64,000 bases of DNA from Candidatus Omnitrophota bacterium (GCA_029564765.1 JAKQPK010000013.1:28216-92215); one strand, 5' to 3'. Positions 35,064 through 37,725 are shown, numbered from the stretch's first letter. Numbers and translations: made by a program. The notes: generated by a model from the letters alone, not told the origin.

Positions 35064-35777
35064 ATGCGTTCCATTCAGGTAAGTGCGAGTATTTTATGCG
35101 CGGATTTTATGAATCTTGCGGACGATATTCGTATGTGTGAAGAGTCTGGGGTAGATATGCTACACGTTGATGTTATGGATGGGCATTTCGTTCCTAACAT
35201 TACGGTTGGCCCTTTGCTTGTAGAGGCTGTCAAATCCATTACAAGCTTGCCCGTTGATGCCCATTTAATGATCGAGAATCCAGGCATGTATATTGACGCA
35301 TTCCTAAAGGCGGGGGCGGATAGTCTTTCGCTTCACGCGGAATGCTACGCGCCTTTAGGTTCTTTATTGCGCGAGATCGATGGGCACACCTTCAAAACGG
35401 ACACAATTAATGTGAAAGAGGCTTTGAAGGATATCCAAAGGATTAAGGACAAGGGAAAAAAAGCTTTTATGGTCCTCAACCCCGGAACACCGATCTGTAT
35501 CCAGCCTGTTTTAGAAAAGCTAGATGGCGTGCTGATCATGTCTGTTAATCCTGGTTTCGCAAAGCAAAAGTTCATGCCGGTGGCGCTATCCAAGATCCAC
35601 CAGCTGCGCTCGATCTTCGCAGGGGATATCGCTGTGGATGGAGGGATCAATCATTTAACAGCGCCAGAAGCGGTTAAGGCGGGGGCAAATATCCTGGCGA
35701 CAGCAAGTTATTTCTTTGGGTCTGAGAAACCAAAAGAGACTATTCGATATCTAAAATCTTTAGGGGGATCATCATGA
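35064..35777 (+). CDS. rpe: Ribulose-phosphate 3-epimerase
   Basis: SILCADFMNL...HVDVMDGHFVPNIT...MSVNPGF...DGGI motifs. Carries an insertion of about 25 aa relative to the E. coli enzyme. Confidence 0.85.
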   Translation: MRSIQVSASILCADFMNLADDIRMCEESGVDMLHVDVMDGHFVPNITVGPLLVEAVKSITSLPVDAHLMIENPGMYIDAFLKAGADSLSLHAECYAPLGSLLREIDGHTFKTDTINVKEALKDIQRIKDKGKKAFMVLNPGTPICIQPVLEKLDGVLIMSVNPGFAKQKFMPVALSKIHQLRSIFAGDIAVDGGINHLTAPEAVKAGANILATASYFFGSEKPKETIRYLKSLGGSS

Positions 35778-36247
35778 GAAGAATGCTTATCGGTAAGATG
35801 TTTGACAGTGCGGGTCAGACCGCTATTGAGTACATGTTGTTGCTGACTATTTGCGCGTTGATCGTTTTTGCAGCGTTCAAGACGTTCTTTGCTCCCGGCG
35901 GAAATGTGAACAAACCCACAGAAGCTTATTTTAATAAGATAAGCAGCAATATCATGGGTCCTGAGCCAGTTTTTACTTCAAACGAGTCGACAGGCGGCCC
36001 TTGCGGCGCTGCGTGTACATCATTTTCTTATAGTGATTGTCCAACAGCCAACGATTGCTGCTCAAAACATCTTGAGTACTCTTGGCAAATGAACCCCAAC
36101 GACCCTTCGATCGGGGCTGGGCAGTGTAACGTAAGTTTTTCCGGGTGCGTATTCCCTCCAGATCCAGCGAATTGTGATACTTATAGCAATAATGAGTGTT
36201 GTGTTCAGGATAGTCTTTGCGCATCCTCTGGCACTGGATGTTACTAG
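35774..36247 (+). CDS. Flp/Fap-type (type IVb) pilin-like protein with a cysteine-rich C-terminal extension
   Basis: Leader MRRMLIGKMFDSAGQTAIEYMLLLTICALIVFA matches the Flp prepilin G/xTAIEY motif plus a hydrophobic helix. About 100 extra residues contain 14 Cys, including CC pairs. Confidence 0.55.
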   Translation: MRRMLIGKMFDSAGQTAIEYMLLLTICALIVFAAFKTFFAPGGNVNKPTEAYFNKISSNIMGPEPVFTSNESTGGPCGAACTSFSYSDCPTANDCCSKHLEYSWQMNPNDPSIGAGQCNVSFSGCVFPPDPANCDTYSNNECCVQDSLCASSGTGCY

Positions 36248-37725
36248 GCATCTTTTATCGCTATCGCTTGTCTTTATTCTTCTTCTTTGTCCTCTCTCTG
36301 TCTTTTTTAAGTTCAAATATCCTAGAGATTGTCGCTTCTGTTGTTTCTGTTTTTGCTGCATCAACAAGTTACCATCTTAAAACCACCTTTTTCTTATTTT
36401 ACGCTTTAAGTTGTTGTTTTCTTGCTGAGCATCAAGCGACTATTCATAACCCACGTTCAGATCAGCTTAGAAAACTTACATTTTCTATCATATTCTTTTT
36501 GGCTCTTCTAAATATTTTCCTTCATTTTTATTTCTTAAGAGTTTACGATCTCCCATTCTCCTTCAAGGCAAAATATTGGATTTTTATTCCAGGAGGGATG
36601 GGCGATGTGACAGCGTTCTATCATTCCCACAGCCTAAAAGCCGTTTGGTATTGCCTCGCCGTGATCCTGAATATTAAAAGTTTTTTTACCCGCATCGATA
36701 TTCAGAACATAGAGGAGGGTGGGGTTTTTACGGGGGCAGGATACGCTTTTTTTGAAACTCTCCCTGCGGCGATTTATTATGTCGCTACAGCCCTTTATGT
36801 TATTTTATTCTTTCTTTTTCTTATGCTTGCGGTTTGCAAGATAAACTCTTGGGGAAAGCACAGGACTATTTTCTTGCTTATTTACGTCACAAGTTCCTTT
36901 TCGATCTTGAGCAACCTTGCGGATGGCGGTCCGGCGACAAAAGAATTCCTTTTTTCCTTTGCCGCTCTTTTTTTTGTTTTAAGATACAATTTTTCCAGGA
37001 AATATTCTGAGATGAGAATAGGCTTGGTTGTTTTCATCTTGATTGCGATCTTGATATATTTTCTCTATGATCTTTTTGGTCTCGATCCAGGTAAGAAATA
37101 TTACGCGCTCTTATTGCTTTATGGGCTTCCTATTGGTTCTTTGTTTTTGTTTTTTGGACGTGTTCGCGCTTATTTTGTTTTCTTACTATGTGTATGGATA
37201 GCATTTATAGTGACTTCATATGCTCACGCTGGGTATTTTCTGCGAGATGATCCAAAGTTCTACGGCCTGCAGCTTTATCCTAACGAAAAGGTGTGGATCA
37301 CTGGATATCGCCAGAGGCTTCCAAAGAAAAAGATTTTTGAGTATGGCTTTGTAGCTATCTATGAGGACATCATTAGGAAAAAAAGCACTCTTCGCGAATA
37401 TGCACAAGAAAACAACTTAGACTATCGATCCTATATGAACCAAGTAACTTTTGTTGGTCGATCCCCATCTGTTTACTTAGATGGTAGGCAAGGTTTTGCT
37501 TCTTATGCTGGGTTGATTAAAGTAAGAAATGTTTTAAAAGGTGTCCAGGAGGATCTATCGCTTCCTTTTTGGCGGGTTATTCTCAAGCCAAGTTCTCTCG
37601 AGGGATTTAACTACGCATTTATTTTCTTAAGCCACGTAAAAGTTCGCCATCTTAATCTTTGCGTTCTGTACACTTTTTTACGAGAGATGCTTAAGACAGA
37701 GGAAATGGTGATCGTTATTCCGTAG
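36217..37725 (+). CDS. AT-rich polytopic membrane protein of unknown function
   Basis: At least 10 predicted TM helices, very hydrophobic, low GC. Start uncertain (36217 or 36238); it overlaps the end of the pilin-like gene. Confidence 0.45.
   Translation: MRILWHWMLLGIFYRYRLSLFFFFVLSLSFLSSNILEIVASVVSVFAASTSYHLKTTFFLFYALSCCFLAEHQATIHNPRSDQLRKLTFSIIFFLALLNIFLHFYFLRVYDLPFSFKAKYWIFIPGGMGDVTAFYHSHSLKAVWYCLAVILNIKSFFTRIDIQNIEEGGVFTGAGYAFFETLPAAIYYVATALYVILFFLFLMLAVCKINSWGKHRTIFLLIYVTSSFSILSNLADGGPATKEFLFSFAALFFVLRYNFSRKYSEMRIGLVVFILIAILIYFLYDLFGLDPGKKYYALLLLYGLPIGSLFLFFGRVRAYFVFLLCVWIAFIVTSYAHAGYFLRDDPKFYGLQLYPNEKVWITGYRQRLPKKKIFEYGFVAIYEDIIRKKSTLREYAQENNLDYRSYMNQVTFVGRSPSVYLDGRQGFASYAGLIKVRNVLKGVQEDLSLPFWRVILKPSSLEGFNYAFIFLSHVKVRHLNLCVLYTFLREMLKTEEMVIVIP

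Follow-up and report, generated by a model that had tools for sequence, protein, structure and literature searches.

Pilins of the Flp/Fap class (PF04964) are exemplified by Flp1 of Aggregatibacter and PilA of Caulobacter. Among archaeal class III pilins (PF04021), the EppA-dependent Epd pilins are said to carry the motif Q-x-S-x-E-x-x-x-L, reportedly set out by Szabo and co-workers in 2007 (cited in PMC4858521). Modular pilins are known from type IV pili, for example PilB-vWA and PilC-lectin of Streptococcus sanguinis (PMC8179133, Raynaud et al. 2021). The pilA alleles of Pseudomonas aeruginosa share a conserved N-terminus and differ in a divergent C-terminus that is exchanged together with a downstream, allele-specific membrane gene, and each accessory protein belongs to a single pilin allele; TfpO and TfpW are glycosyltransferases, whereas TfpX, TfpY and TfpZ help assembly (PMC11841053). 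Such pairs of a pilin and an accessory gene appear so far to have been described only for classical type IV pili, and by analogy the locus reported here looks like one. Here we describe a locus in 64,000 nucleotides of DNA from Candidatus Omnitrophota bacterium (GCA_029564765.1, JAKQPK010000013.1:28216-92215), a stretch referred to here as the window, in which a short pilin encoded directly 3' of rpe is extended by a domain with 12 cysteines (the head) and its gene is followed by that of a 495-residue membrane protein. The Omnitrophota are uncultured, ultra-small bacteria thought to be predators or parasites, and Tad pili are their suspected attachment device (PMC10066038). Our reading, held with moderate confidence, is that the locus encodes a bimodular Tad/Flp–archaeal (class III signal) pilin with a displayed head, that the membrane protein is a partner specific for this head, and that head and partner share one allele cassette.

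The extent of the cassette is given by comparison with strain L014 (Logan SRR30949876), whose DNA is 97.2–97.5% identical to the window over positions 35001–35975 and 37745–38800 and whose rpe and pyrG proteins are 99.6% and 99.8% identical to those of the window. Missing from L014 is window segment ~35970–37714, exactly the head-coding part of the pilin gene and the membrane-protein gene (a difference of 1745 bp, taken from the alignments), and its pilin has 68 residues, ending in GSAPVIN. The junctions lie at about codon 66 (66–68) of the pilin gene and in the last three codons of the membrane-protein gene, both with the microhomology GTT-(A/T)TT-xxx-TAG-CTT. A search of the cassette ends for direct or inverted repeats or att-like sites gave only chance-level short repeats. 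Short alleles ending in APV[VI]N are found also in more distant relatives (P0011), which makes insertion of the cassette at least as likely as its deletion.

Present in every rpe locus that has a 12-Cys head (the window, L001, L002/L075, L003, L008, L010/L044 and L011–13), the membrane-protein gene is found in no locus with another tail or none (L004, L014, L016, L071 and about 30 more). Outside the clade of the window, the head occurs solely in protein P0018 and its counterpart in L102, a 165-kb JGI contig. There the pilin begins MNKKCAQSTLEYIMILIAV..., has 146 residues, a full class III signal and the same 12-Cys head, and is followed by a 494-residue protein with 32–34% identity to the window's membrane protein from end to end (E 5e-55, 2e-65); the pair as a whole is 32–45% identical to that of the window. 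The gene order in L102 is mdh, an acidic protein, the pilin, the membrane protein, a PpiC/SurA-like rotamase, RcpC/CpaB (E 5e-26) and a T2SS-T3SS_pil_N secretin (pilus N-terminal domain, cpaC-type; E 3e-25), so that the pair is retained, with a divergent pilin core and in other surroundings, at the start of a Tad-type pilus cluster. In inheritance, loss and relocation alike, head and membrane protein go together.

P0018 itself was considered as a Cys domain on a non-pilin N-terminus. This was rejected, the gene call being shortened by an in-frame TAG: in locus L099 the open reading frame (ORF) of P0018 is in frame with an upstream MNKKCA↓QSTLE (the arrow marks the predicted cut, here and below), followed by TAG at the Tyr+6 codon. 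The TAG lies in L099 1114–1155 and the intact Tyr+6 codon in L102 2458–2499; it may reflect an error in sequencing, a pseudogene allele or a polymorphism.

The carrier of the head has the N-terminus of a prepilin (MRRMLIGKMFDSAG↓QTAIEYMLLLTICALIVFAAF), with the motif AG↓QTAIEY followed by a hydrophobic helix, the sole strongly hydrophobic stretch of the protein (residues 17–35). An earlier reading of the sequence alone (the sequence-only reading) had recognized this Flp-type leader and helix, and both hold. Only four other full-length relatives of the pilin were found by a word-indexed search of 5.8 billion proteins. An exhaustive HMMER search of 1.84 billion representatives with the relatives' alignment yielded 107 proteins at E ≤ 1e-3, most of them 57–95 residues long and covering query positions 1–68. 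As these stand-alone relatives align to residues 1–68, this segment is a complete short pilin. When 105 relatives were scanned singly at E ≤ 0.01, Class_IIIsignal matched 81 of them and Flp_Fap 21; many have a precomputed PF04021 match, and some are named 'class III signal peptide-containing protein' (NCBI) or 'Flp pilus assembly pilin Flp' (JGI) in their sources. All HMMER members with a named organism are Omnitrophota.

Shared by the relatives is the motif [KR]-[G/A/S]↓Q-[T/S/A/V]-A-[I/V/L]-E-Y-[L/M]-L-L-L, in which Gln+1 and Glu+5 are invariant and Tyr+6 nearly so (about 100 relatives); position −1 is G, A or rarely S, and position −2 is often K or R. After the signal comes a second helix, Y-F-N-K-V...I-M-G, and then a Pro-rich end. 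The basic leader, small residue at −1 and Glu+5 are features expected of a substrate of an A24 peptidase, which would probably cleave the leader. A degenerate DNA pattern for QTA[IV]EYxLLL, run over 185,579 species genomes, matched in Omnitrophota, many Bdellovibrionota and a few DPANN archaea. ORFs near 11 sampled motif loci away from rpe (mostly of Bdellovibrionota, plus Nitrospinota and DPANN archaea) include those for RcpC/CpaB (5), Peptidase_A24 (2) and secretin (2). As far as its sequences indicate, the pilin family is a bacterial class lying between the Pfam Flp and the archaeal class III models. Such an intermediate position fits the view in the literature that Tad pili are derived from archaeal Epd-like pili (PMC6668835), and also the reported clustering of Omnitrophota TadB/C with those of Bdellovibrionales (PMC10066038).

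At about 40 non-redundant Omnitrophota loci, metagenome-assembled genomes labelled 'uncultured Planctomycetales' included, the pilin gene lies directly 3' of rpe on the same strand wherever the flank is captured. A convergent operon of FIST, GAF-histidine kinase and response regulator (RR)-GGDEF genes comes after the pilin, and pyrG is usually upstream (window span 29907–41499; examples are L016, L022, L023, L035, L082 and L085). Identity of rpe to its window counterpart goes down to 54% in this set, and the position of the pilin is therefore old and orthologous and is not an island. In the window the rpe stop and the pilin start overlap as ATGA, the 4-nt overlap that had been read from the sequence, and a strong Shine-Dalgarno sequence, AGGGGGA, lies 7 nt 5' of the pilin start within the last rpe codons. 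It is pure speculation that the phylum-wide position of the pilin beside a cyclic di-GMP (c-di-GMP) module reflects a link to surface sensing.

What varies at this locus is the 3' end of the pilin gene. The mature protein ranges from 48 to more than 918 residues, and its tail has 0, 2, 4, 6, 8, 12, 22 or 98 cysteines. In 39 of 40 cases this count is even, as it should be if they form extracytoplasmic disulfide pairs; many tails begin P-x-C-G-D-G-x-C. The orthologous pilin of L089 (47–4275 of JAHFFY010000006.1, Candidatus Omnitrophota nzgw302) has more than 907 residues and 98 cysteines, with CGxKDDGCGxxIxCGxCC repeat units and Pfam matches to TSP1 and HRM. Downstream of it are genes for a 185-residue membrane protein and a 306-residue HTTM-domain protein (PF05090, E 7e-13), and to judge from these sequences L089 looks like another tail with its own membrane partners at the rpe locus. 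The shortest allele is that of L030, a 48-residue mature form without cysteine; a 378-residue TPR protein (L030 3142–4278) is encoded between it and RR-GGDEF, as another variable insertion.

The head of the window pilin is an 87-residue domain with the spacing C-x3-C-x7-C-x5-CC-x21-C-x6-C-x8-C-x7-CC-x5-C-x6-C. Of the 13 cysteines of the protein, one (C27) is in the helix and 12 are in residues 77–156, including the doublets 95/96 and 142/143. The sequence-only reading had found the Cys-rich domain, put at about 100 residues, and its CC doublets, but its count of 14 cysteines was too high. Homologues with the same extension exist, and in the five head sequences, whose identity falls to 43%, all 12 cysteines are invariant, as are NDPS.GA and the Y and W of EYSW. 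The 12 cysteines would probably pair as six disulfides. The head has no match in Pfam (E ≤ 1) or, by sequence or profile, in the PDB. That the Cys-rich tail might be a separate, frame-shifted gene was rejected: all orthologues keep a single ORF, with dN/dS (the ratio of nonsynonymous to synonymous substitution rates) of 0.14–0.18 for core and tail.

Overlapping the end of the pilin gene is the T-rich gene of the membrane protein. The mechanical call is 36217–37725 from TTG 36217; homologues begin at ATG 36238, so the gene is most likely the 495-codon 36238–37725, which overlaps the pilin stop by 10 nt. Encoded is a protein with about 10–11 hydrophobic helices in its first ~340 residues followed by a non-membrane C-terminal domain of ~160 residues, predicted to be periplasmic by the positive-inside rule applied to the loops. 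An AT-rich ORF with at least 10 transmembrane (TM) helices had been noted here, correctly. Only four homologues were found in the 5.8 billion proteins, all of which adjoin a 12-Cys pilin at the rpe locus, and conservation extends over the whole length. Among the loop residues, E30, H46, K48, D123, H129, H131, K134, D154, D229-G-G, E236, D338 and D395-Y-R are polar and invariant, a pattern that would fit an enzyme or a specific binding protein and identifies neither. The protein has no hit in Pfam or NCBIfam at E ≤ 1 and matches no known family; searches of the PDB by sequence and profile, solved GT-C structures included, gave no hit either.

A narrower version of our reading would make the membrane protein a pilin glycosyltransferase or oligosaccharyltransferase (TfpO/PglL- or TfpW-like), decorating the head at Ser/Thr or Asn within the periplasm, for purposes such as phage evasion or adhesion. 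The polytopic build with about 10–11 TM helices and a predicted periplasmic C-terminal domain would suit this, as would the acidic and His residues among the invariant ones (E30, D123, H129, H131, D154, D229 and E236), a Ser/Thr-rich head and the position of the gene immediately 3' of the pilin gene in translational coupling; TfpO/TfpW cassettes provide a precedent (PMC11841053; bioRxiv 10.1101/2020.04.19.049825). However, Pfam searches at E ≤ 10 with five homologues gave nothing consistent and no hit to Wzy_C, PMT, GT-C or STT3, the heads of different homologues do not share their N-x-S/T sequons and Ser-rich patches, and the cassette has no sugar-biosynthesis genes. The invariant E30 follows TM1 and is not diagnostic of the acidic motif in the first periplasmic loop of GT-C enzymes. 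We consider such an enzyme unlikely, and the suggestion of a Wzy_C/PglL-type O-oligosaccharyltransferase in the sequence-only reading is unsupported; its alternative, another pilin-processing factor, would fit the strict co-occurrence of head and membrane protein.

Three further assignments of the membrane protein were rejected. A membrane thiol oxidoreductase (DsbB/VKOR/DsbD-type) would be recognized by paired cysteines; there is no CxxC and no conserved Cys pair, one cysteine being invariant among the four close homologues and none once L102 is added, and the protein is therefore not a DsbB/VKOR-type oxidase. Kinship with the HTTM protein of L089 is not seen (hhalign probability 0.1%, no Pfam hit), nor is kinship with two ~545-residue paralogues encoded upstream of rpe, by BLASTP.

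The membrane-protein gene has a GC content of 0.383 and the lowest GC content at third codon positions (GC3, 0.383) of the 49 window genes (mean 0.484, standard deviation 0.038, z = −2.7). Two other polytopic membrane genes nearby have GC3 of 0.46–0.48, so hydrophobic codon bias alone does not explain the low value; the tail-coding part of the pilin gene has 0.433. The proposal of an acquired cassette had part of this right: there is a variable unit of 1745 bp, absent in L014 and with the lowest GC3. However, it starts within the pilin gene, at about codon 66–68, and the pilin locus itself, which is syntenic across the phylum, was not acquired.

Relative to strain L002, dN/dS is 0.16 for the pilin (0.18 for the core, 0.14 for the tail) and 0.23 for the membrane protein; this purifying selection indicates that both are real genes. 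For the neighbours rpe, RR-GGDEF, histidine kinase and FIST it is 0.013–0.074, and at the protein level pilin and membrane protein evolve 3 to 15 times faster than these. Positive selection on the head was rejected, as its value of 0.14 denotes purifying selection, though faster change than in the neighbours. The synonymous rate dS rises from 0.04 in rpe to 0.3–0.75 from the pilin through RR-GGDEF, histidine kinase and FIST, which indicates a recombination breakpoint at the rpe/pilin junction between the window and L002.

Strain variability and atypical composition recall pairs of a toxin with a membrane protein, and the Cys-rich tail could be a knottin- or bacteriocin-like effector exported on a pilin carrier, with the membrane protein as its immunity or export partner. 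The C-C-CC-C-C spacing in the second half of the head, read from the sequence, recalls cystine knots and hevein, and Omnitrophota have been proposed to be predators or parasites (PMC10066038). The Cys-rich pilin gene of L089, too, is followed by that of an HTTM-domain protein. The HTTM domain occurs in SdpB, the maturation factor of a Bacillus toxin. Nevertheless, the head matches no toxin, knottin, hevein or chitin-binding family in Pfam or in PDB sequence and profile searches and resembles them in Cys spacing only; core and head are joined without a protease site or second leader, the membrane protein is unrelated to HTTM, and the rpe locus has Cys-rich tails of every size without partner genes. 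An effector is thus very improbable.

In the bimodular pilin that we favour, an A24-family prepilin peptidase would cut off the leader (about 14 residues) in front of Gln15. The helix at the mature N-terminus would anchor the subunit in the inner membrane, with the head in the periplasm, and later pack in the core of the filament. The membrane protein, which would lie in the inner membrane with a periplasmic C-terminal domain and be specific for the head rather than the core, may act on the membrane-anchored prepilin in the periplasm, either modifying the head, as TfpO and TfpW do in P. aeruginosa, or helping this bulky domain to fold and enter assembly, in the manner of TfpX, TfpY and TfpZ. 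The subunit would then be built into a Tad-type filament, displaying the 87-residue, six-disulfide head outside the cell, at the pilus tip or along it, where it would most likely serve as an adhesin or ligand-binding module. Head and partner would form a 1.75-kb allele cassette grafted on the 3' end of an Omnitrophota-wide pilin and gained or lost as a unit.

Several observations weigh against this. The window pilin alone scores below the cut-offs of Pfam Class_IIIsignal (PF04021; E 0.031, 14.7 bits, cut-off 23.7) and Flp_Fap (PF04964; E 0.22, 11.8 bits, cut-off 32.2), and strictly the single sequence has no Flp_Fap hit; these sub-threshold scores are outweighed by the family-level evidence, which upholds the pilin identity and makes Class_IIIsignal the better-fitting model. 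Structure prediction with AlphaFold2 (AF2) gave for the pilin (5-sequence alignment) helices 7–39 and 48–61 at low confidence (pLDDT 51.1), a model made unusable by the shallow alignment, and for the membrane protein (4 sequences) an equally unusable model (pLDDT 41.7); Foldseek searches against the PDB matched nothing at E ≤ 0.001 in either case. No similarity of the membrane protein to families of glycosyltransferases, oligosaccharyltransferases, Dsb/VKOR or HTTM proteins could be detected. Inside the rpe-locus clade, common descent accounts in part for the co-occurrence of head and partner, and both could be lost in one deletion; independent support for their pairing comes from one other lineage (L099/L102). 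Finally, the pilin gene lies inside a housekeeping operon (pyrG...rpe), an uncommon place for a pilin, and among the window ORFs of at least 110 codons that were scanned, to which ORF 60281–64000 does not belong, there are no pilus-assembly genes (tad/cpa/pil), be it for a prepilin peptidase, ATPase, platform protein or secretin. The sequence-only reading had likewise seen no tad or cpa genes.

An orphan gene that shares its operon with housekeeping genes, in a 64-kb window where no assembly genes were seen, would also suit a protein that forms no filament at all. Its class-III-like N-terminus would then be a membrane anchor (pseudopilin or uncleaved), and the head would bind in the periplasm to the C-terminal domain of its membrane partner, forming for instance a sensor or receptor pair that possibly feeds the FIST/histidine kinase/RR-GGDEF module. 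The strict co-variation of head and membrane protein and the phylum-wide adjacency to a c-di-GMP signalling operon would agree with this, but that operon runs towards the pilin gene and is not co-transcribed with it, and it accompanies tail-less, partner-less pilins (L014, L030–L032) just as well. Furthermore, the invariant Q+1, E+5 and Y+6 are hallmarks of processed, assembled pilins, most family members (57–70 residues) consist of the pilin core only, and the L102 pair adjoins cpaB and a secretin gene. We regard a mere anchor as improbable, and a pilin bearing a displayed head as the better account.

With a conserved Flp-like carrier and a hypervariable display domain, rich in disulfides and different even among strains of a single species, the locus is a candidate specificity locus. 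The membrane protein represents an unannotated family with a clear genetic handle, being always beside its putative substrate. More tentatively, and with doubt prevailing, the rpe-linked pilin gene beside the c-di-GMP module may be the one core-genome pilin gene of Omnitrophota, and its 3' end a phylum-wide docking site for disulfide-rich heads swapped by recombination (0 to more than 850 residues), some with dedicated membrane enzymes, and the 495-residue protein may found a new family of head-specific maturation enzymes or chaperones for Tad-type pili. If so, Flp-class pilins would have their first described system of accessory-gene cassettes, one that probably helps to determine the hosts or prey to which these ultra-small bacteria attach.

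Table 1. Features of the rpe–pilin locus and of its surroundings in the window.
Feature	Position	Strand	Remarks
rpe (ribulose-phosphate 3-epimerase)	35064–35777	+	PF00834 E 9e-62; TIGR01163 E 3e-68
Pilin ORF	35774–36247	+	157 residues, one ORF
Predicted prepilin leader, MRRMLIGKMFDSAG	35774–35815	+	predicted cut after G14, before Q15
Pilin core, Q15 to ~T68	35816–35977	+	helix alpha-1 QTAIEYMLLLTICALIVFAAF, turn, second helix YFNK[VI]..IMG.[PE]P
Linker and 12-Cys head, residues ~69–157	35978–36247	+	left portion of variable cassette
Polytopic membrane protein, 495 residues	36238–37725	+	right portion of variable cassette
FIST–GAF histidine kinase–RR-GGDEF operon, convergent	37739–41499	−	Pfam; downstream boundary of locus
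Polytopic membrane paralogue 1, ~545 residues	31520–33151	+	at least 11 hydrophobic helices
tRNA-Leu(gag)	33181–33262		separates the two paralogues
Polytopic membrane paralogue 2, ~545 residues	33351–35009	+	at least 11 hydrophobic helices
MpsC-domain gene (PF10057)	41796–42173	+	on one side of purC
MpsC-domain gene (PF10057)	43276–43632	+	on the other side of purC
DsbA-like thioredoxin-fold gene	56410–57228	+	PF13462 E 6e-23; PF01323 E 9e-17
Long ORF, at least 1240 codons	60281–64000	+	exceeds window end; lower GC, 0.36–0.41

A protein with 100% identity, PKO44_03020, places the window in a Candidatus Omnitrophota metagenome-assembled genome. The neighbours of the locus in the window are housekeeping genes (amtB, glnB, glnN, nadE, gltBD, carAB, purF, pyrG, purC and others) or signalling genes (Table 1). 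Between pyrG and rpe in the clade of the window are the two ~545-residue membrane paralogues (35% identity, E 5e-110), each with an acidic HDD or HDS..DTD just after TM1 and a soluble C-terminal domain; Pfam, NCBIfam and PDB searches with them gave no match. They are missing from distant Omnitrophota (in L016 pyrG abuts rpe), and as L014 has them too they are not tied to the cassette. Inserted between the second paralogue and rpe in some relatives is a gene for a 248-residue UPF0259-like membrane protein (L001 8541–9287, L010 1377–2129, L011 6080–6826), whose absence from the window (35009–35064) and from L014 marks a second indel in the neighbourhood. The order MpsC–purC (SAICAR synthetase)–MpsC is also kept in the relatives L002 and L014. 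The DsbA-like gene indicates a periplasmic disulfide-forming capacity, and the long ORF at the end of the window, which has a signal-peptide-like N-terminus, may be a candidate for the very long secreted proteins reported for Omnitrophota.

Compared with described systems, the pilin core resembles Flp/Fap pilins in its short leader, whose predicted cut is followed by a five-residue stretch that closes with Glu-Tyr (G/xxxxEY), in its hydrophobic helix and in the mature core, which has only ~54 residues and lacks a globular domain; the L102 relative with its 12-Cys head adjoins cpaB and a cpaC-type secretin gene. It differs from Flp/Fap pilins in the invariant Gln at +1, in an Ala (rarely Ser) instead of Gly at −1 in about a third to half of the family, in the 87-residue 12-Cys head and in a gene that lies outside a tad operon, 3' of rpe. 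With archaeal class III pilins, for which PF04021 is the best Pfam model of the family, it shares [KR][GAS] before the cut, Gln+1 and Glu+5, and the exact string QTAIEYLLLL occurs in genes of DPANN archaea; unlike them it has a bacterial host and a second helix, YFNKV..IMG, that is unseen in the archaeal matches. A limited literature search, which is not proof of absence, found no description of Flp-class pilins with grafted disulfide-rich heads, of a dedicated accessory membrane protein for them, or of an rpe-linked, phylum-wide hypervariable pilin locus.

The closest functional parallels are in type IV pili. As in the P. aeruginosa cassettes, C-terminal domain and partner vary together between strains, here by presence or absence in 97% identical ones; the pilin is of Flp/class III type and not of the N-methyl-Phe type IVa, the partner has no sequence similarity to Tfp accessory proteins or Wzy_C, and its gene overlaps the pilin stop, whereas in P. 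aeruginosa it follows a terminator. Like the modular pilins, the window protein joins an N-terminal pilin module to a distinct second module, the two meeting at about residue 68, where the short alleles naturally end; the head is also found on a divergent core, and a head-less allele exists in a near-identical strain. Their IPR012902 N-methylation signature is missing here, the carrier is helix-only and Flp-sized, and the module is an unclassified, disulfide-rich domain with a dedicated membrane partner. The concepts of the modular pilin and of the accessory cassette would thereby extend to minimal Flp/archaeal-type pilins, which are usually deemed too small for cargo.

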